Shown here piece after piece: positions 9,679 through 24,478 of a stretch of DNA of 26,059 nt. A program made the translations under genes and the position numbers. Origin of the DNA: Nostoc sp. DedSLP01 (GTDB taxonomy: Bacteria > Cyanobacteriota > Cyanobacteriia > Cyanobacteriales > Nostocaceae); the NCBI GenBank assembly GCA_034530875.2, contig JAVRCJ020000066.1, positions 1 to 26,059 of the forward strand, written 5' to 3'. Position 1 is the stretch's first letter. Each line of letters begins with the position of its first letter. A model generated the notes under the pieces. The model was not told the origin of the DNA. It saw only the letters and a list, made by a program, of their open reading frames with translations, and searched no databases.

Positions 9679-9753
9679 ATAATTGCGCTGATGGTACACA
9701 CTTGGCTGAGGCGTATCATATACTGCTATTCTAATGGGTAAACACATGAAAGA

Positions 9754-9779
9754 TACAGACGCGATTCATCGCGTCTGTA
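9754..9779. repeat. REP/SDR-like palindrome between divergent genes
   Basis: TACAGACGCGAT-TC-ATCGCGTCTGTA, related to the 5695-5725 palindrome. Confidence 0.8.
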
Positions 9780-9811
9780 CAATTAAAGGATTTGTCAGAG
9801 AAACAAGAATT

Positions 9812-10999
9812 ATGCAATTAAAAAATAAATTCTTTCAGACAATTCCCCGTACTATTTGGGTGTTGGGATTTGTCAGTCTGCTGACAGATATTAGCTCCGA
9901 GATGATTAATTCTCTGCTGCCTTTGTTTTTGGTATCAGCTTTAAAGGCAAACGTGCTAACTGTAGGCATTATTGAAGGGGTTGCGGAAGCAACAGCTTCA
10001 ATTTTGAAAGTCTTTTCGGGAGTATTAAGCGATTATTTGGGACATCGCAAAGCTTTAGCGGTGTTTGGCTATGGGTTATCTACCTTTGTGAAACCTCTAT
10101 TTGCTGTAGCTAGCAGCCCGACAGGGGTGTTAATAGCTCGATTTGGCGATCGCGTCGGCAAAGGTATTCGAGTCGCACCCCGCGATGCTTTAGTTGCCGA
10201 TTCTAGTAACCCAGAGGTACGCGGTGCGGCCTACGGATTGCGTCAATCTCTCGATACTATCGGCGCATTCTTAGGGCCTTTGGCAGCATTTGCACTGATG
10301 GCTGCTTTTGCAAATAACTTCCGCCTGGTTTTTTGGCTGGCACTCATCCCTGGCTTTTTAGCAGTAGCTTTATTAACAGTAGGAGTCAAAGAACCGAGAA
10401 CAAATCAAACTCAACCAAAGCGAAGTAATCCTCTGCAATGGGAAGCTTTACGCAGTTTAGGCCATCAATATTGGGTACTTGTAGCAGTCGCGCTGCTATT
10501 CAATTTAGGCAACTCCAGCAATGCGTTTTTATTGCTAAGAGCAGAACAAACAGGTATTTCTGCTTCATTCATACCCTTAACATTAATGGTGATAAATATA
10601 GCTTATTCGTTGAGTGCCTACCCAATAGGAATACTTTCCGATCGCTTGGGCAGATTTTGGTTACTCGTAAGCGGATTTCTCCTTTACGCTGTAGTATATC
10701 TGGGCTTCGCCTTCGTACAAGCACCTTGGCAAGCTTGGGGATTGTTTGCCCTGTATGGTTTGCATCTGGGCATGAGTAAAGGATTGCTGCTGGCGTTAGT
10801 ATCGGATAGCATACCTGCAAATCTGCGTGGCACCGCTTTTGGATTTTTCAACTTGGCTATAGGAATAGCACTTTTACCTGCAAGTTTTCTAGCTGGTGGT
10901 TTGTGGGAAACGATGGGAGCAAAAGCAACATTTATCGCTGGGAGTTTATTTGCGATCGCATCTGTATTGTTGTTACTCTCTCAAAGAAACAAATATTAA
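9812..10999 (+). CDS. MFS transporter
   Basis: About 12 hydrophobic segments, MFS motif A (GVLSDYLGHRK and GILSDRLGR), RFGDRVGKGIRVAPRDAL. Start placed at MQLKNK (9812) because the longer ORF overlaps the divergent gene region and the palindrome. Confidence 0.93.
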   Translation: MQLKNKFFQTIPRTIWVLGFVSLLTDISSEMINSLLPLFLVSALKANVLTVGIIEGVAEATASILKVFSGVLSDYLGHRKALAVFGYGLSTFVKPLFAVASSPTGVLIARFGDRVGKGIRVAPRDALVADSSNPEVRGAAYGLRQSLDTIGAFLGPLAAFALMAAFANNFRLVFWLALIPGFLAVALLTVGVKEPRTNQTQPKRSNPLQWEALRSLGHQYWVLVAVALLFNLGNSSNAFLLLRAEQTGISASFIPLTLMVINIAYSLSAYPIGILSDRLGRFWLLVSGFLLYAVVYLGFAFVQAPWQAWGLFALYGLHLGMSKGLLLALVSDSIPANLRGTAFGFFNLAIGIALLPASFLAGGLWETMGAKATFIAGSLFAIASVLLLLSQRNKY

Positions 11000-11019: not shown

Positions 11020-11250
11020 ATGTCAAAAGGATAAAGGAAAATCGTACATAAATTTGCTGGGCAAAAGGTTTCTGAAATCCTGAAGTACAAGAAGGGTAGT
11101 ATCAAGCAAGCTCCACTTCCGGAAGAATCACCAAGTTGGGATGAGTTTTGTGAAATGTTATGGGAAGAAATCGAAGCAGGAGCAGAATTAAATTATCCAG
11201 GTTTTAAAGTAGTTCGCAAGTTATTAAGTGATAAGAGGTTTGACAAATGA
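11020..11250 (+). pseudogene. Small toxin-like protein interrupted by an in-frame TAA at codon 5
   Basis: Hand translation: MSKG*RKIVHKFAGQKVSEILKYKKGSIKQAPLPEESPSWDEFCEMLWEEIEAGAELNYPGFKVVRKLLSDKRFDK*. Its TGA (11248-11250) overlaps the next ATG (11247-11249). Not in the ORF track. The toxin call is inference. Confidence 0.7.
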
Positions 11251-11543
11251 AGAGTTATGGATTTAGCAAACTAGTTACCTTTTTAAATCAATTGGAACAA
11301 GAGAAAATTAGTTATACTTTAGCCCATCATCGCGATGAAACTATTATGGTGAATGTAGCGGTGGCTGGAGAGCGATGGGAAGTCGAATTTTTTGAGGATG
11401 GTTCCGTTGAGGTAGAACGATTTATTAGTAGTGGAGAAATTAATGGGGAAGAGGTTTTTAGTGAATTATTTGCTATGTATGCAGAACCAGAAAGTAATTC
11501 TGTTAAACTTAGCCAAAATACTAACTTGGCAACTACGACATAA
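11247..11543 (+). CDS. Small acidic protein, putative immunity/antitoxin partner
   Basis: 98 aa, Glu-rich (GERWEVEFFEDGSVEVERF), translationally coupled to the upstream ORF by ATGA. Confidence 0.75.
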   Translation: MKSYGFSKLVTFLNQLEQEKISYTLAHHRDETIMVNVAVAGERWEVEFFEDGSVEVERFISSGEINGEEVFSELFAMYAEPESNSVKLSQNTNLATTT

Positions 11544-11604
11544 AGCGATCGCACTGCATCTTACCAGGAAAATCGAACCTTTAATTTAACTGCTCATCTT
11601 AAGG

Positions 11605-12546
11605 CTAATCATTATTTGTATATGTGATTACTGGGGAACGAAGTTCGTATCCGACTATGGCAGAGTAGAGACGGCGTATAACGTCTTCAATTTTATAACT
11701 TTTACGCTGTAAATCTGGATAGAAAGCCCCTTCATGTAGAATCTTGCTGCGGATTATATAAGCTTCTTCCAGAATTTCTAATGCCATTTTGTCCTCAGTT
11801 AAATGAGTTGTAATAAGGCGTTTAATAGCGTGTGATACAGATTCGCGCTTTAGATTCCTGATACTCCCTTCGAGCGATCGCTTTATATCATCAGGTAAAT
11901 CCACTGAATCTTGCACCTTATTTAAGGTATCTTTTATAATTTCTTTTAAATCTGGGTATTCAAATTTTTTTTGTTCAGCTAATGGCTCAAGTGCCGATAC
12001 AAGACCAACAAATCTTGCACGTTCTGTTGCCTCTAAACGAGCTGCGGCAAAAAGCTCCATTGAGACGAGCAGCCGTTTATTATTAATTGGTATGTTAGAA
12101 GTGAAACTTTCCTCCAGTACTTCAACAACTAGGCTTGCTCCATTAATAAGAGAGGACTTACTATGAGATGACATCACTATCCGTCCGTATGGAGTCCGAT
12201 CGTATACCACACATGGCAGTGGAGTGTGATATTCTAACCGTAGTGGACATCTTAATGAGACTGCTGCCCACAAAACTGACATTGCAAACTTTAAACCAGC
12301 TTCCTCTGCTTCGCTAGCAGTAGCAAAACCTTCTAAATAAGCTGTAAATTTCTGAAACTCAAACTTCTTGTTTTGCTGAGGAATGAGACGAACTATCAGC
12401 TCATTACCCAAAATCAAACAACTTTCTCCATCAAAACCAAACTGATTGTTGCCACCAAGAATAATATCAACCTTTGAGCCATAGGGTCTGAGTTGAGGTT
12501 TATCTGCTATTTCGTATCTTGTCTTTGGTAAATGATTATTTGGCAT
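11605..12546 (-). CDS. HEPN-domain protein (ApeA/MauJ-like), putative RNase
   Basis: C-terminal helical domain with LVSALE(P)L followed by YIIRSKILHEG (RxxxxH, 11734-11751). The N-terminal domain is predicted beta-rich. Confidence 0.72.
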   Translation of the reverse strand: MPNNHLPKTRYEIADKPQLRPYGSKVDIILGGNNQFGFDGESCLILGNELIVRLIPQQNKKFEFQKFTAYLEGFATASEAEEAGLKFAMSVLWAAVSLRCPLRLEYHTPLPCVVYDRTPYGRIVMSSHSKSSLINGASLVVEVLEESFTSNIPINNKRLLVSMELFAAARLEATERARFVGLVSALEPLAEQKKFEYPDLKEIIKDTLNKVQDSVDLPDDIKRSLEGSIRNLKRESVSHAIKRLITTHLTEDKMALEILEEAYIIRSKILHEGAFYPDLQRKSYKIEDVIRRLYSAIVGYELRSPVITYTNND

Positions 12547-12796
12547 TTGCTAATCTTACTCTTCTAAGTATTGCCTGTTGAGTAACTTTAACTATAACCT
12601 TTAAGATGCCAAAAGCGATGTCTAATAAACCTATGCCTTAAAGTTTTTTGTAATTTGCTTAATTCTTTAATTGCGGTTTATATCACTATTTACTGAAATG
12701 ACAACGCACCTTCTAATGCATTAATTTCTGGCGGCATAATTCCAATACTCAGATTAGAAAGCAACTTACAATCAGCAATCTCTACTCGCTCATTTA

Positions 12797-17843: not shown

Positions 17844-19367
17844 TTATGCCAACTGAAAATTTCCTCCACAGGTTGCTAAAAGTTCTAAAATCACTCCATT
17901 TGTCCAGCCGAAACCAACTTCGTTAGAACTGTATCCAAAGCAGATTTCATCGGAAACGTTGGCAGAACAGCGTTCAACATCGTATTTTTCAACTAAGGTG
18001 TTGTGACGCTCAAATTCTTTGAGCACCATAGCGAGGAATTTGTGAGCAATGCGATCGCCTTCTGTATGATATCCATAGCGGTGGAGTCCCTGAACGGCAA
18101 TTAAGGTCAGCGGTGCCCAACCAAAGGGAGCATCCCACTGGTTACCAGTGACACGAGTGCTGGTAAAAATTCCTCCTGGGGCTTCAAACAAAGATAGATT
18201 TTCTACCAAGCGCTTGGCTTGGGTTGGAGAGGCAATTCCCAGCCATAGGGGATAGAATGTCGTCGCAAATTCATAACGGCGACGTTGTTCGGTCTGCAAA
18301 TGATAATCCAGATACAGTCCCAGTTCTTCATCCCAAAGATACTGGTTGATACGTTCGCGGCGTATCTCTGCACGTTCGTGCCATTGTTGCACCAGTTCGA
18401 CATTACCGAAAATTTCCTGAATTTTGGCTAAATCTTGTTCCATCTGATACAGCAAACTGTTAAGGCACACAGGAGCGTAATGCAGGATATCAGCACTGAA
18501 GGGGCCAAATCGGTTTGTGATATCAAAACCCGATTCGCGCATGGTACGATCGCCTTTATAAAATAGGTTAGTCAGTTCGTCTTTTTCGCGATCGTAGTAA
18601 AGACTGACATCATAATCCTCAACCTCAAAGGTTTGGTAGTATTCCTTAACGCGATCGTAATGGCTTTTTCCCTCTTCATCTCGCTCGGAAAACAAAACTT
18701 CTGGTGCGGGGCCTTCGCCAAAGGCATAAAATCGGGATAAACCTGTCGCAGGATTGAGGTGCGGCGGAACTACCCAGTAATAATAAAACTGTTCTAGTAG
18801 CGGTACGGTTGACCTCAACCACTCTTCATCCTGGGTGCGCTCAAATAGCGCCATCACCATCATACTCAGGACGGGGGGCTGCGATCGCGACAGCATATAA
18901 GTCCGGTTGGAATTGAGGATCGTACCGTAATGCTGCACTTGGTAGAGTAATTGATCTACTTGGCTTTGGGCTAATTCCAATTCGCCATCGTGCAAAAGCC
19001 CCAATAATATAAAGTAGCTGTCCCAACCATACATTTCGTTAAACCGACCGCCAGGCACAACATAGGGCCCTGGCAGGTATAATAATCCATGCTCTCGAAT
19101 TGCTTCGACTTCGGGGGGCAAAGTGCGAATTTCAATTCTTTGCATGTCTTTGGGAGATAGCGATCGCTCTAACACAGTTTGAACGTTGGGGCAATCTTCC
19201 AAAGGTGAAATGTAGACAATCCACGGAGTTTCTGATTTGTGGTCTAGTTTAGTATCTTTGGCAGATTGTAGTAAGTGTTCGTGCGATCGGGTTAAGGTTT
19301 CCCAGGTTTTTTTGATATGAGTTTGCACGGCGCGAATTTGCGCGGTGGTGAGTGAGGTTGTAGTCAT
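17844..19367 (-). CDS. treH: Alpha,alpha-trehalase (GH37)
   Basis: YVVPGGRFNEMYGWDSYF, RSQPP, RESGFD, QWDAPFGWAP, EKYD, GFGWTNG. Confidence 0.95.
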   Translation of the reverse strand: MTTTSLTTAQIRAVQTHIKKTWETLTRSHEHLLQSAKDTKLDHKSETPWIVYISPLEDCPNVQTVLERSLSPKDMQRIEIRTLPPEVEAIREHGLLYLPGPYVVPGGRFNEMYGWDSYFILLGLLHDGELELAQSQVDQLLYQVQHYGTILNSNRTYMLSRSQPPVLSMMVMALFERTQDEEWLRSTVPLLEQFYYYWVVPPHLNPATGLSRFYAFGEGPAPEVLFSERDEEGKSHYDRVKEYYQTFEVEDYDVSLYYDREKDELTNLFYKGDRTMRESGFDITNRFGPFSADILHYAPVCLNSLLYQMEQDLAKIQEIFGNVELVQQWHERAEIRRERINQYLWDEELGLYLDYHLQTEQRRRYEFATTFYPLWLGIASPTQAKRLVENLSLFEAPGGIFTSTRVTGNQWDAPFGWAPLTLIAVQGLHRYGYHTEGDRIAHKFLAMVLKEFERHNTLVEKYDVERCSANVSDEICFGYSSNEVGFGWTNGVILELLATCGGNFQLA

Positions 19368-19391
19368 AGTTTGAACTCGGAATTCTTTTTA

Positions 19392-19512
19392 AACGCAAAG
19401 GAACGCAAAGGGAATCGCAGAGTCACGCAGAGTTTTCTCTCTCTCTGCGCGACGCCAGATGCTTCAAGTCGGGAAACCCGCCCAACGCACTGGCTCCTCC
19501 GCGCCTCTGCGT
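19392..19512. repeat. Composite intergenic repeat: (ACGCARAG)n/(CTCTGCG)n hairpin carrying an SDR-like 41-bp hairpin
   Basis: ACGCAAAG/CGCAGAG units on the left and CTCTGCG units on the right, interrupted by GCCAGATGC...GGGAAACCC...GCACTGGC (19454-19494). Confidence 0.7.
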
Positions 19513-19519
19513 GAGGTTT

Positions 19520-22318
19520 TTACTCAGCACTACTAACTAACAAAGCAACTGGAAAATGTGCGAGGGCATCTCCGATAGATAATGTTTCTTTAGTTTGTAA
19601 TGGCTGCTGAGTTAGGACATTCTTCCAAGACAAGGAACTTCCGTGAGGTACTTGCAGGTGGGTATCTTGCCACACTGACTCGCCTAAAGGATCTTCTCCA
19701 GGGTGGATGAGGCGAGTGAAAAAGCGAGGTGCGATGGCGATCGCTGTTTGGTGTCCGTGACGCCGGGCAAAGGCAATAATATGATGGGCGTGAGTTCCGT
19801 GAATTTGTAACGGCAGATAATCTCCGTCTTGGAATAGGGAGAGATAATCTTTTCTGGCTTGGAGTAATTGTGCCGTTAAAAATAGTTTAATTCTGCCGTC
19901 ATTTTTGTGTTTTAGTAAGTCTTGAGTCAATCCCAAAATGTCGGTTTTGATTTGCTCTTTAATGTTACTTAAGTAATTTCGTCGCTGTTGAAAATCTACA
20001 GGACGGCGGTTATCTGGATCGACTAAACTTAATTCCCAAAGTTCCGTTCCTTGATAAAAATCAGGTACGCCGGGTGCGGTAGCCTTGAGTAGAGTTTGGG
20101 AAAGAGAATTAAACATTCCGTAGTAGGCAACTCGCTGTTGCAGAGGGTGGAAGGCTTCAAGAAATTCCTCAGAAATTGAGGGATTTAGTATTTTTTCTAC
20201 AAAGGAAGTGCAAGCTTCTTCGTATTCGCTATCGGGCCGCAACCATGCAGTATGCACTTTCGCTTCTCGAATTGCTTTGATGGTGTATTCTTTCACCCGT
20301 TCCACGAATGATTCGCTCTCGTCTTCGGCAAAAGGAAATGCTCCTATTAGTGTTTGATAGATTAAATATTCGTCATTGCGATCGGGCATAGCAAATCCGT
20401 GGCGAATCTTGCGACATCCTTGATTATAATGACTCCAGATGTTGACTTTTTCTTCCCATTCTTCTGGTAATTCTGATAACACATTTAACCTTGCACGTAC
20501 ATCTTCACCGCGTTTAGTGTCGTGGGTAGCTGTAGCGTTCATGGTGTGAGGCCATTTTGCTTGATGCTGTTGGTTAAAAGTGTGGAAGTCGGCAACAGAA
20601 ACGCCAAAATGACCGGGATTTCCTCCCACTTCATTAAGCGACAACAAGCGATTGTAGACATATAATGTTGTGTCTTCGACCCCTTTAGCCATGAGGGGGC
20701 CGCTGTATTGCTGCATCCGCAAAACAAAATATATCCACTGTTCGCGTTCTGTTTGGGAAAGAGAATTATCAAATTCCAGCAGCATCAATTTTTCAATAAA
20801 AGTTAATTCATGCTGCAATAAAGGCGCTTGTTCTTTTGCTTGACTAATTACTTCTTGAATTGTGAGTTTATCGTCTTCACTAATTCCATCGGGAGTAATA
20901 TAAGTACGGTAAATTGGGAAGAGAGTTAAAACTTCAGCGATCGCTCTTTTGAGACCATTGATAGTAAAGTCATTGCCATAGCGATATTTGCTAGAAATAT
21001 TTTTTAACAGGCTGGCTAAGTTATCTATATCACCTGCCAAATTCTTTTCTAGTATCAGTTGCTTTTTCTCCTTTACCAGCGACGGATAATCTACTCTTGT
21101 GCTGATAAATGCTTGGTAAATTTTATCAAGCCAAAATTCAATATCTTGTTGACAGAATACACCATTTACGTAGTTTAAGAAATCGTATCCTGATGTGCCT
21201 TGAATGTCCCAATCATCTGGCAAATCTTCAGTGAGTTCGAGAATTTTTTCGACGGTGATATAAACATCTCCTGCCTTTTCTCGCAATCTTTCAAGATATT
21301 GATTCGGGTTATAAAGTCCATCAATATGGTCAATCCGCAAACCTGTAAATTTACCTTCTTCAACTAGCTTTTGAATCAGGCTATGGGTGTTATTAAAAAC
21401 CCGCAGTTCTTCAATTTTTACAGAAATTAATTCATTGACAGTAAAGAACCGACGATAATTCATTTCTTCGGCGCCAACCTTCCAGAACGCGAGACGATAA
21501 AATTGGTCTTTGAGTAAATCGTCTAGCAGATTAAAGCTTTCAGAATTGCCGGGTTCGCCGTTAAAAGTTTTGAGGTTTTCTGCGATGAATTCGCGGATTG
21601 AATCGTTGCTATTGTAGAGTTCCCAAACTAATCCTTTGATAAAGGCAATTTGGTCTTGTCGCTGTTTACCCGCAACTTCAGAAGGCACATTTTTAAGAAT
21701 GTAGAGAATGCCTAAGAGTTTGATAAAATCGGGATGATTGCGTCCCAGCGTCCGGGTGAGTTTGCCGAGATTGTAGGTAAGAAATTTTGTGTAAGATTCT
21801 AACCGCAGGGGTAGTTTTAAACTGTAATAATTGACAGTTAAACCATTTTGTTCGTATTGCAGTTGAATGTGTCCGTTTTCTAAGGATACACCATAGAAAT
21901 CTCCTAGTAGAGGAGCGAGAATTCGTTGTTCGCGATCGCCAAATGGCACATTCCAAGACAAGTCGAAGTAATCAGTATAGCTGGAATCTGGTCCGTGTTC
22001 CAAGATATCCATTAAATACTGATTTTCACTGCTATAGGCCATGTGGTTTGGCACAATATCCTGCAACCAACCCATTTCCAGAGATTGTATTTCACTAATT
22101 AATGCTTCAAAGGACTCATTAGTTCCCAGTTCCGGGTTGAGTTGAGTGGGGTCTACTATATCGTAGCCATGCGTACTACCAGACCGCGCTTTGAAAATCG
22201 GAGAAGCATACAAATCAGAAATACCTAAATCAGAAAGATAAGCAGCGATCGCTTTGGCATTTTCAAAGCCGAACTGAGGTGTAAACTGAATTCGATAAGT
22301 TGCTCTAGGAATTCGCAT
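19520..22318 (-). CDS. treY: Malto-oligosyltrehalose synthase (GH13)
   Basis: PRATYRIQF, LYASPIFKARSGSTHGYD, DIVPNHM, NYRRFF, GLRIDHIDGL, VEKIL, MAKGVED, ATHDTKRGED, LVDPDNRRPVD. Confidence 0.97.
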   Translation of the reverse strand: MRIPRATYRIQFTPQFGFENAKAIAAYLSDLGISDLYASPIFKARSGSTHGYDIVDPTQLNPELGTNESFEALISEIQSLEMGWLQDIVPNHMAYSSENQYLMDILEHGPDSSYTDYFDLSWNVPFGDREQRILAPLLGDFYGVSLENGHIQLQYEQNGLTVNYYSLKLPLRLESYTKFLTYNLGKLTRTLGRNHPDFIKLLGILYILKNVPSEVAGKQRQDQIAFIKGLVWELYNSNDSIREFIAENLKTFNGEPGNSESFNLLDDLLKDQFYRLAFWKVGAEEMNYRRFFTVNELISVKIEELRVFNNTHSLIQKLVEEGKFTGLRIDHIDGLYNPNQYLERLREKAGDVYITVEKILELTEDLPDDWDIQGTSGYDFLNYVNGVFCQQDIEFWLDKIYQAFISTRVDYPSLVKEKKQLILEKNLAGDIDNLASLLKNISSKYRYGNDFTINGLKRAIAEVLTLFPIYRTYITPDGISEDDKLTIQEVISQAKEQAPLLQHELTFIEKLMLLEFDNSLSQTEREQWIYFVLRMQQYSGPLMAKGVEDTTLYVYNRLLSLNEVGGNPGHFGVSVADFHTFNQQHQAKWPHTMNATATHDTKRGEDVRARLNVLSELPEEWEEKVNIWSHYNQGCRKIRHGFAMPDRNDEYLIYQTLIGAFPFAEDESESFVERVKEYTIKAIREAKVHTAWLRPDSEYEEACTSFVEKILNPSISEEFLEAFHPLQQRVAYYGMFNSLSQTLLKATAPGVPDFYQGTELWELSLVDPDNRRPVDFQQRRNYLSNIKEQIKTDILGLTQDLLKHKNDGRIKLFLTAQLLQARKDYLSLFQDGDYLPLQIHGTHAHHIIAFARRHGHQTAIAIAPRFFTRLIHPGEDPLGESVWQDTHLQVPHGSSLSWKNVLTQQPLQTKETLSIGDALAHFPVALLVSSAE

Positions 22319-22336
22319 ATTTGTTTCTTGTGGGAA

Positions 22337-22352
22337 TGTTGACTGTTGACTG
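22337..22352. repeat. Short STRR3-like (TGTTGAC)n tract
   Basis: TGTTGAC TGTTGAC TG just upstream of the treY start. Confidence 0.55.
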
Positions 22353-22426
22353 AGGAGTTGAGAGTTAGAAGTTTGACGTTTTTAAGCTTAATATTAAGCC
22401 TTAAAGTTTGAACGTTGAACCTTTAA

Positions 22427-22615
22427 GAGGGTGTTTGAAAAACCATAATTGATGTATCAAATATTTTTTACCCCACCCTAACCCTCCTCTTGTAAAGGGG
22501 CTACGGTGTACACACAAGTTATCGAATTACCCCACCCTAACCCTCCCCTTATAAAGGGGAGGGAACTAGATTTCTTATTTCCCCCCTTTACAAGGGGGGA
22601 TTAAGGGGGGTAAAA
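22427..22615. mobile_element. Composite MITE relic: IS5-like end, hairpin repeats and one IS50-like TIR
   Basis: TAA|GAGGGTGTTTGAAAA at 22427, half-hairpin CCCCACCCTAACCCTCCTCTTGTAAAGGGG, TIR CTACGGTGTACACACAAGT at 22501-22519 (exact reverse complement of 55-73), then intact CCCTCCCCTT-ATA-AAGGGGAGGG and TCCCCCCTT-TAC-AAGGGGGGA hairpins. No partner ends found. Confidence 0.7.
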
Positions 22616-22627
22616 ATTCGACTAAAA

Positions 22628-24478
22628 TCACAGCCACCTCTCATACAGTACTAAGCTAGTGGGTTGCAATGTCACTTCCTCACCCGCAGAAAGATGTTCA
22701 GACGCTTGTGAACCAGACCCAGACCATGATGTGTCTGCTGAATCTAATAGTTTGCGAGCTTTGTTTTCAATTGGCAAAGTTACTGTTACAGGAGAAGAAT
22801 TGAAATTCAATACAAATGTTAATTCGCTCGTTTCAGTCCAACGACGCACAATAACTATTTGTTTTTCTTCATCGCTAGTAGCTTGGATAGAGTTGCGGTC
22901 TTGATTGACAAGCGCAGGCAGCTTTTTGCGTAAATTAATTAATTCACGATACCAATTCCACAAAACTTTGTGATTACCTTCGTGGCGTAATTCCCAGTTG
23001 AGTTTAGACTTGAGGAATGTTTCTGCGGATTCGGGATCTGGCGGATCTTCTTCGTAGTGGAAGGCTTCAAATTCTTCTTTGCGTCCGGCTCGAACTGCTT
23101 GAATTAAATCTGAGTCGGAGTGGCTGACAAAGTAAATAAATGGTGCAGTTTCGCCGTATTCTTCACCCATGAATAATAAGGGCAAATTAGGTGATAGCAA
23201 CACAGCACCGGCAGCTAACTTTAATCCTTCAAAAGAGATGCGCGCTGTGAGGCGTTCTCCTTTCATTTGGTTGCCGATTTGGTCGTGATTTTGAATGCAA
23301 ACTAAAAACTGTGATAAAGGGCGATCGCGACAAGATACGCCATGATATCGTAGGCGATGTGGTGCGTATTTCCAATCATAAATAAAAGTGTCTTGATATG
23401 CTTTTGCTAAATCAGCACACTTGCCATAATCCTGATAATATCCTTGGCGATCGCCTGTTAAAAGTACATGCAATGCATGATGAAAATCATCGCTCCATTG
23501 AGCATCTAGCCCATATCCACCCAATTCTGCCGGACGAATTATTTGCGGATTATTTAAATCGCTTTCAGCAATTAAATGGCGTTTCCATCTTTGCCCTTGT
23601 TGGGAAAAATGATGAACTGCTTCGGCTAATTCCCATAAGAAATGCTTCGCTCCCAAGTCATAAATTGCTTGAATTGCATCTAGTCGCAATGCATCAATAT
23701 GGAATTCACCCAACCAATAAATCGCATTTTCGATGAAATAATTTCGCACGCCCATACTCAGGGCATGGTCGAAATTCATCGCATTGCCCCACGGCGTTTT
23801 ATAAACTGTCGTAAAGTAGGGCGCGAACTGACCCATATAATTCCCTTCCGGGCCAAAGTGGTTGTACACCACATCCAGCACTACAGCAATACCGTTTTCG
23901 TGGCAAGCATTCACCAATTGTTTCAAATCTGCTGGAGTACCGTAGGAATTTTGTACGGCATAAGGATAAACGCCGTCATAGCCCCAGTTACGGTATGCCA
24001 AAGCAGGTTCAATATGGGTATCTCCGGGAAACTGAGAAATCGGCATAATTTCAATCGCATTAATTCCCAGTTCTCGCAGTTCCGGTAAACGGGGAATAAT
24101 AGCGGTGAAAGTACCTTCAGGCGTGAATGTCCCGACATGAAGTTCGTAGAAAATCATTGACTCCACAGGAATGCCAGTCCATCCTGCATCAGTCCACTCA
24201 AACTGATGTTCGATAACTTGAGATGGCCCGTGTACCCCTTCAGGCTGATACTGCGAAGCTGGGTCAGGAAAAGCGTTTTCCCCATTCAGCACATACTTAT
24301 AAAGCGTACCTGGGTACACATCATTTACCTTCGTGTGCCAGTATCCCTCTGCTTGAGGTTTAAGCGCAATTACTTGCACTTGGGGCGTCAAAATTTGCAC
24401 GGCAACGCTATCTAACGTTGGAGACCAAACTGTAAATTCACACTCTCCGTTACCCAAATAATTAGCACCAATTCTCAC
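22628..24478 (-). CDS. treZ: Malto-oligosyltrehalose trehalohydrolase (GH13)
   Basis: PDPASQYQPEGVHGPS, YELHVGTFTPEGTF, RNWGYDGV, DVVYNHFGPEGNY, LRLDA, IAESD, WSDDFHH, QNHDQIGN, LFMGEEYG. GTG start with a GGGAG RBS. Confidence 0.97.
   Translation of the reverse strand: MRIGANYLGNGECEFTVWSPTLDSVAVQILTPQVQVIALKPQAEGYWHTKVNDVYPGTLYKYVLNGENAFPDPASQYQPEGVHGPSQVIEHQFEWTDAGWTGIPVESMIFYELHVGTFTPEGTFTAIIPRLPELRELGINAIEIMPISQFPGDTHIEPALAYRNWGYDGVYPYAVQNSYGTPADLKQLVNACHENGIAVVLDVVYNHFGPEGNYMGQFAPYFTTVYKTPWGNAMNFDHALSMGVRNYFIENAIYWLGEFHIDALRLDAIQAIYDLGAKHFLWELAEAVHHFSQQGQRWKRHLIAESDLNNPQIIRPAELGGYGLDAQWSDDFHHALHVLLTGDRQGYYQDYGKCADLAKAYQDTFIYDWKYAPHRLRYHGVSCRDRPLSQFLVCIQNHDQIGNQMKGERLTARISFEGLKLAAGAVLLSPNLPLLFMGEEYGETAPFIYFVSHSDSDLIQAVRAGRKEEFEAFHYEEDPPDPESAETFLKSKLNWELRHEGNHKVLWNWYRELINLRKKLPALVNQDRNSIQATSDEEKQIVIVRRWTETSELTFVLNFNSSPVTVTLPIENKARKLLDSADTSWSGSGSQASEHLSAGEEVTLQPTSLVLYERWL

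Follow-up and report, generated by a model that had tools for sequence, protein, structure and literature searches.

The window, i.e. the whole stretch of 26,059 nucleotides from Nostoc sp. DedSLP01 that was analysed, contains two small overlapping genes on the forward strand, here referred to as A and B, which are flanked upstream by a gene for an MFS transporter (positions 9734-10999, + strand) and downstream by an unnamed ORF of 313 aa (11605-12546, - strand). Gene A (11041-11250, + strand) encodes a predicted toxin of 69 aa, for which the start codon is predicted to be ATC (AUC in the mRNA; 11041-11043) and the stop codon is TGA (11248-11250). The Shine-Dalgarno (SD) motif AAGGA (11027-11031, + strand) lies 9 nt 5' of this ATC, in register with that of relatives, and a TAA (11032-11034, + strand) lies in the spacer between the SD motif and the start, outside the predicted coding sequence. 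Gene B (11247-11543, + strand) has an ATG start codon that overlaps the stop codon of A (ATGA) and an SD motif, GAGGT (11235-11239, + strand), inside the last codons of A; it encodes a protein of 98 aa, the predicted immunity protein or antitoxin.

The initial annotation had described a frame that begins with ATG at 11020-11022, contains the in-frame TAA and is otherwise open to the TGA at 11248-11250, followed with an ATGA overlap by an acidic partner; the sequence agrees with all of this, and the pI of B is 4.5. The ATG and the TAA delimit a strain-specific mini-frame of four codons (11020-11034, + strand), the ATG of which arose at the point where, compared with the colinear locus L011, 11 nt are deleted. 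This mini-frame is probably incidental; it may have an effect on initiation at the ATC at 11041. No promoter-like site was found on the + strand upstream of A, and the promoter scan gave two sites, both on the opposite strand and at chance level. Moreover, the region upstream of A in the window is unlike that of most relatives. For these two reasons, expression of A in the window strain is uncertain. Elsewhere in the window (17844-24478, - strand), three genes look, by eye, like one for a trehalase and the treY/treZ pair for trehalose synthesis.

The closest loci are from Nostoc. Among these relatives, the pair mostly lies just 5' of a shared set of downstream genes (a Uma2 gene and the one that follows); the genes adjoining the pair vary. 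The slot between gene B and the Uma2 gene (11545-12790 in the window) differs in its contents by strain across the loci L001-L025 and holds genes for an AIPR/AbiU-like protein (L011), an HTH protein, DUF559, GrpB or unknown ORFs. We conclude that this slot is a small integration hot spot. The 313-aa ORF occupies the same slot in only three of 25 Nostoc-type loci (L004, L006, L010) and has no above-threshold match in Pfam, NCBIfam or PADLOC; it contains an RxxxxH stretch near the C terminus, which may correspond to the motif of HEPN RNases. With respect to defence context, one slot gene among 20 scanned Nostoc neighbours matches AIPR/AbiU, while A and B have no match in PADLOC.

A search with A among longer proteins gave 71 matches, 67 of which end at most 5 residues from the domain. 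A profile search of cluster representatives gave 302 matches, and 150 of these 302 entered the count. In the two sets together, the A domain was C-terminal (at most 5 residues from the end) in 121 of the 126 proteins of at least 150 aa. The carriers of the A tip, 21 of which were scanned, contain RHS repeats, PT-HINT, PT-TG, a T7SS signal or an eCIS core. Polymorphic-toxin tips are defined, in terms of architecture, by a C-terminal place on varied carriers (PMC3482391). The resemblance to RHS/polymorphic-toxin tips that had been proposed in the initial annotation is therefore borne out and, judged by its homologues, A is a predicted toxin, namely an unnamed C-terminal tip of polymorphic toxins in stand-alone form.

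The structural model of A is all-helical (pLDDT 90). K60 and L62 do not vary among the 121 fused tips, in which G19, S20, A24, L26, P31, W33, G54, D64, R66 and F67 are 89-98% conserved. The Lys/Arg-rich ends pointed out previously are real, but the window copy is neutral overall (12 K+R, 12 D+E), compared to a median net charge of +5 in the family. Because of the conserved basic residues (K17, K60 and R66, with D64), our guess is that A may target nucleic acid or the ribosome. A has no match in Pfam (best E-value 0.055, 40 members), NCBIfam or PADLOC, and neither A nor B gave a significant sequence match in the PDB; a match to CcdA in the PDB sequence search was rejected (E-value 0.22). Foldseek searches with A in PDB and BFVD gave no match, the best Z of A in a separate fold search was 3.6, and the ESM Atlas gave no usable match for A and unnamed clusters for B; this lack of fold matches does not show that the folds are new. 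A had no match in plasmid or phage collections, and B had none in viral contigs. A single weak match of A in viral contigs, L150, was not confirmed by profile.

In a tree of A homologues, which is a quick version based on 69 columns and omits four frameshift-like long rows, gapped tips, near-duplicates and nine of 79 eligible fused tips, 27 stand-alone rows with an ATC, ATT or ATA (ATH) start lie among fused tips on one side of a branch with a support of 80. Short proteins starting with Met are scattered over the tree. The branch support of 80 is too weak to prove a single origin of the stand-alone ATH-type copies.

Gene B has 452 homologues and a dN/dS ratio of 0.16 (37 pairs). It gave only sub-threshold matches in Pfam and NCBIfam, none of them to an HTH or RHH family above threshold, and no PADLOC match. 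The model of B (pLDDT 81) has an alpha-beta4-alpha core (residues 1-80) and a tail of low confidence. The best fold match was a Mediator subunit (Z 7.5, rmsd 2.1, 58 aligned residues); the Rhs immunity protein TriTu also matched (Z 5.2, rmsd 2.5, 54 aligned residues), but because TriTu is one of many ties, these matches reflect only a common helix-plus-sheet arrangement. No shared operator-like repeat was seen upstream of the pair, and any 6-bp inverted repeat was present in nine of 63 upstream regions.

The link between B and fused tips comes from one readable fused locus, L176 in the Chloroflexota genome G842, in which an RHS core (TIGR03696, E-value 2.6e-15) ends in an A tip that is followed by a B homologue (profile E-value 1.5e-23, hhalign 99.3%, 40% identity) and then by further RHS-like fragments. 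Because the B homologue follows the RHS-fused A tip, B is likely the cognate immunity protein of A. No further fused loci were found among 300 Acidobacteriota, 349 further Gammaproteobacteria (where one further genome was not scored) and 15 further genomes of the order of G842. In the same genome, L225 (G842:C3:515000-527461), at the end of a contig, is an array of RHS cassettes that contains, in addition to A/B, several ORFs resembling tips and immunity genes; other unnamed toxin-immunity pairs may be present there. In co-folding, A and B reached a score of 0.60 versus 0.00 for the best control, the runs agreed in at least 73% of contacts, and the pLDDT of the partners was at least 85. Of 157 solved complexes, 116 reached the co-folding mark, as did two of 215 mismatches; only 18 of the 157 solved complexes reached it at 0.60 or below, yet both passing mismatches did. 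Of the structural checks suggested in the initial annotation, the fold search gave no match for A, while the predicted complex weakly favours binding.

B is located directly 3' of A in 121 of the 123 loci with room for it. The pairing of the tip with a likely immunity gene, as well as the occurrence of homologues both ahead of the 98-aa gene and as RHS tips, is accordingly as had been anticipated, and the pairing is conserved. The initial annotation was also right that there is no delivery domain: the A frame of 69 aa is closed upstream by a stop codon and contains no trafficking or delivery domain. When the N-terminal parts of the fused proteins were compared by tblastn to L001-L150 and the window, there were 0 matches, many of the metagenome loci having short flanks. 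Of the 94 nearest neighbours, 83 were scanned, leaving out 11 mostly short ORFs, and 0 of the 83 were RHS, HINT, WXG or PAAR carriers. The neighbours scanned include TA-type genes (DUF433, HigB, DUF4258 twice, BrnA) as well as one RTX-repeat protein, one C39 peptidase, three transposases and three DUF6079 proteins; the A/B pair lies directly 3' of a DUF6079 gene in three unrelated loci (L045, L094, L113). In the genome of the window strain, carrier parts of the RHS, PT-HINT, PT-TG and T7SS types gave no match, and three eCIS-core-like genes are present.

The distribution of the module is patchy. It was detected in 5 of 36 congeners, 15 of 400 cyanobacteria, 3 of 350 Chloroflexota (the fused locus included) and one further Gammaproteobacterium among 349, and in 0 of 300 Acidobacteriota besides the seed. 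Two Chloroflexota loci, L175 (G1006) and L177 (G1086), represent a separate stand-alone lineage directly 3' of a gene that by eye resembles a 2-oxoacid oxidoreductase gene; L175 has B, while L177 is frameshifted and B was not detected there.

The order of gene loss was followed in 136 hand-curated loci with room for both genes. Both genes were intact in 109 loci, A was damaged and B intact in 20, both were damaged in four, and three were flagged as having an intact A and a damaged B. In the flagged loci, B is destroyed and A is changed at the invariant G54 (L022), B has a frameshift after residue 66 (L092), or B is shortened to 76 aa with an intact core (L094). Thus, damage to A alone was observed in 20 of 136 loci versus 2-3 of 136 for the reverse, counts that are inflated by kin and assembly errors. 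Similarly, next to the 30 best B matches in the genus, A was intact in 22, damaged in three and absent in five cases; and in ten genomes chosen for a damaged B, A was undetected in nine and carried a nonsense codon in one, so that none of the ten had an intact A. In total, the toxin gene is usually lost first, the pattern expected if A harms the cell without B. Loss of the toxin with retention of immunity, which the initial annotation had proposed, therefore does occur in other strains (20 of 136 loci), but most likely not in the window strain. In L194, L196, L200, L202, L206 and L208, B is kept together with a remnant of the last codons of A or nothing of A; the ribosome-binding site of B sits in these last codons.

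The 5' end of A was compared across 62 genome loci, the best 80 of 149 metagenome loci and the loci from whole-genome searches. A + strand match was present in 146 loci, four were set aside (three on the other strand and one without a match), and 128 were full length. At the position of window 11041, the full-length loci have ATC (88), ATT (14), ATA (11) or another codon (15), and ATG in none. After removal of loci more than 90% alike over residues 10-69, disregarding codon 1, 63 non-redundant loci remained, of which 54 have ATC, ATT or ATA and 0 have ATG at codon 1; the other nine have an ATH codon one step away (four), TTG (one), ATG (one) or a different 5' end (three). Copies of A with an ATH start are present in six named phyla. 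SD enrichment is specific to codon 1: a match of at least 5 nt at an aligned spacing of 3-9 nt precedes codon 1 in 42 of 63 loci, as compared to 0/63 at codon 10, 1/63 at Met39 and 0/63 at -60 nt, while the start of gene B, for comparison, has such a match in 47/63. The dN/dS ratio is 0.25 for codons 2-9 (44 pairs), 0.17 for codons 10-69 and 0.79 for the nine codons upstream. A ratio of about 0.17 indicates that the A frame is under purifying selection, and both conservation and codon-level selection start at the ATC at 11041.

An in-frame stop codon is present at most 15 codons upstream of codon 1 in 49 of 63 loci; from that stop through codon 14, ATG, GTG and TTG are absent in 25 of 63 and, counting upstream only, no such codon precedes a stop in 47 of 63. 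In total, these observations support that A is very likely intact, i.e. an open frame of 69 codons for which the likely start is AUC, a conserved non-AUG codon separated from the TAA by two codons. Moreover, an in-frame ATG at most 15 codons upstream is present in 10 of the 63 loci, and all ten are closed by a stop codon before codon 1, compared to 5.2 expected (nominal P ~7e-4, which is overstated because the ten cases include kin). Upstream GTG (1/4 closed, 1.5 expected) and TTG (5/13 closed, 4.3 expected) show no such excess. The TAA in the window is one of the ten stops, and closure of upstream ATGs is apparently a sign of selection against AUG. In four loci, an ATG that no stop closes is present at a greater distance upstream (16 to 66 codons). 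The weak start is not universal, because stand-alone copies in six loci appear to be ATG-started: L124-126 and L133 have an ATG at codon 2 without an SD match, and L175 and L177, of the separate Chloroflexota lineage, begin with ATG.

Altogether, we favour, with a probability of about 0.65, the reading that A and B form a toxin-first, type II toxin-antitoxin (TA)-like operon, in which A would be translated from a non-AUG start codon and B would be the likely immunity protein. Initiation from AUA, AUC or AUU in E. coli reaches 1-2% of that from AUG (10.1101/063800). A good SD motif combined with a poor start codon would give a trickle of A; by contrast, B, with an AUG and its own SD motif inside the last codons of A, would be made in large excess, and would bind and neutralise A. 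Shortage of B, or relaxed start-codon checking under translation stress, would leave free A, which would arrest growth. Ribosome assembly defects relax the start-codon check by IF3 (PMC6868393) and are therefore a possible trigger for A. In the genome of the window strain, infC, the gene for IF3, appears to start with ATG rather than ATT.

In one alternative, A is an untranslated spare tip kept for recombination in an orphan cassette, and B guards against the RHS toxins of neighbours. Orphan CdiA-CT genes without an initiation codon, accompanied by expressed immunity genes, are described in PMC9086364; B lacks an intact A in 8 of the 30 best genus matches, and A is damaged in 24 of the 136 loci, all as would be expected for such a cassette. 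However, no carrier is nearby (0 carrier-part matches in the loci, 0/83 neighbours and no RHS match in the window genome), there is no conserved upstream homology arm, and purifying selection, a conserved SD motif and a fixed ATH codon would be needless for an untranslated spare. The pair fits an orphan cassette poorly, and we consider this alternative unlikely.

We regard it as similarly improbable that A is a low-level weapon acting outside the producer, either released by lysis or injected by a separate machine such as an eCIS, with B as plain self-immunity and no stress-triggered self-poisoning. The A domain is a weapon tip by ancestry, the window genome does contain the three eCIS-core-like genes, and B is without a recognisable DNA-binding domain of the kind typical of many antitoxins. 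On the other hand, the 69 residues of A include no carrier or targeting segment, the variable neighbours include classical TA genes (DUF433, HigB, DUF4258 twice, BrnA) and not export genes, and a start codon of 1-2% strength would presumably gain a weapon little.

The initial annotation had A starting at the ATG at 11020 and recently silenced by the TAA as codon 5. The ATG and the TAA are real and in frame, and A copies broken by nonsense codons are common in other strains. The TAA is also not an assembly slip: three contigs with a depth of 190-467 show no difference from the window letters at the TAA, which excludes such a slip, yet these contigs may be the source of the window DNA and are then not independent. 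However, the ATG results from the deletion junction and is absent in all ten aligned relatives; the TAA is present at the same place in L002, L013 and L063, from which the window differs mostly by silent codons (silent/replacement 7/3, 7/4 and 5/1, respectively); 47 of 63 loci have no ATG, GTG or TTG upstream before a stop; and the TAA precedes the predicted ATC start at 11041, where selection begins. This start with a silencing TAA is largely refuted and very improbable: the hidden gene pointed out in the initial annotation is real and the ancestry guessed for it is right, but a leader TAA had been taken for a lesion. Finally, although many database entries are 60-aa forms beginning at a GTG at codon 10 and close Nostoc relatives carry this GTG, a true start there that was lost in the window strain (GTT) is highly improbable, since only 18 of 63 loci have GTG as codon 10 (GTA 22, GTT 11, GTC 7), none of the 63 has an SD match of at least 5 nt there, and codons 2-9 evolve as coding sequence.

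The reading of A/B as a TA-like operon with a non-AUG toxin start would have several implications. It would add a toxin domain and an immunity family without a match in Pfam, NCBIfam, PADLOC or the PDB, and a comparative case of the conversion of a weapon tip into a free-standing TA-like pair that retained the original immunity gene. A non-AUG start kept across phyla, and apparently selected against AUG, would be a way to hold down a toxin, and would explain why annotation misses or shortens gene A. Since gene callers do not see A-type toxins, many hypothetical genes that seem solitary may encode the antitoxin to an overlooked partner, and an SD motif followed by an ATH frame that overlaps a lone small gene provides a search rule for hidden toxins. 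More speculatively, and with clearly less confidence than in the operon itself, an unnamed toxin-immunity family might have left the polymorphic-toxin arsenal for a TA-like operon in at least six phyla, with toxin dosage set by AUC, AUU or AUA and not by a DNA-binding antitoxin; the output of such an operon would rise when start-codon checking fails, e.g. during ribosome stress or phage takeover, making it a sensor of initiation fidelity. In the literature searched, mostly outside subscription papers, we found no mention of the A/B family, or of a conserved AUC start in a TA toxin; searches with A/B motif strings gave no relevant paper, and no real match in the available parts of the supplements of PMC13483458, PMC9424270 and PMC3482391.

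A/B resembles polymorphic toxin systems in that A is a tip on five carrier types and that a B homologue follows the tip in the RHS locus. By contrast, the tip in the window is a separate gene that has a ribosome-binding site of its own, no carrier is encoded in the vicinity, and the domain matches no Pfam or NCBIfam toxin family. In terms of homology, we conclude that the A/B pair descends from a polymorphic toxin-immunity pair and is not a full polymorphic toxin. Tox-RES and Ntox24 are toxin domains common to polymorphic toxins and TA systems (PMC3482391). As in those cases, a single domain is used both as the tip of exported proteins and in a free-standing two-gene module; however, A/B uses a different domain, the same immunity family is present in both settings (in one fused locus), and the non-AUG start is conserved in stand-alone A. 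Orphan CdiA-CT/CdiI and Rhs modules (PMC9086364) similarly have a tip and an immunity gene, no carrier and no ordinary start, and the immunity gene outlives the toxin gene. Unlike these modules, A/B lies outside a cdi or rhs locus and lacks a recombination arm, and the conserved SD motif, the ATH codon and purifying selection point to translation of A.

The operons higBA, mqsRA and hicAB are toxin-first type II TA operons. A/B shares with them a small toxin gene in first position, an overlapping antitoxin gene, a patchy spread and TA-rich neighbours. It differs from them in having no sequence or fold match, in that B has no recognisable HTH or RHH domain or evident operator, and in that the start codon seemingly determines the dosage of A. 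[quoted passage not shown] As in these genes, a near-cognate Ile start codon would lower the output of A; while infC, pcnB and ebpA are single genes, AUC, AUU and AUA interchange at one position of A across six named phyla, and do so in a predicted toxin gene.
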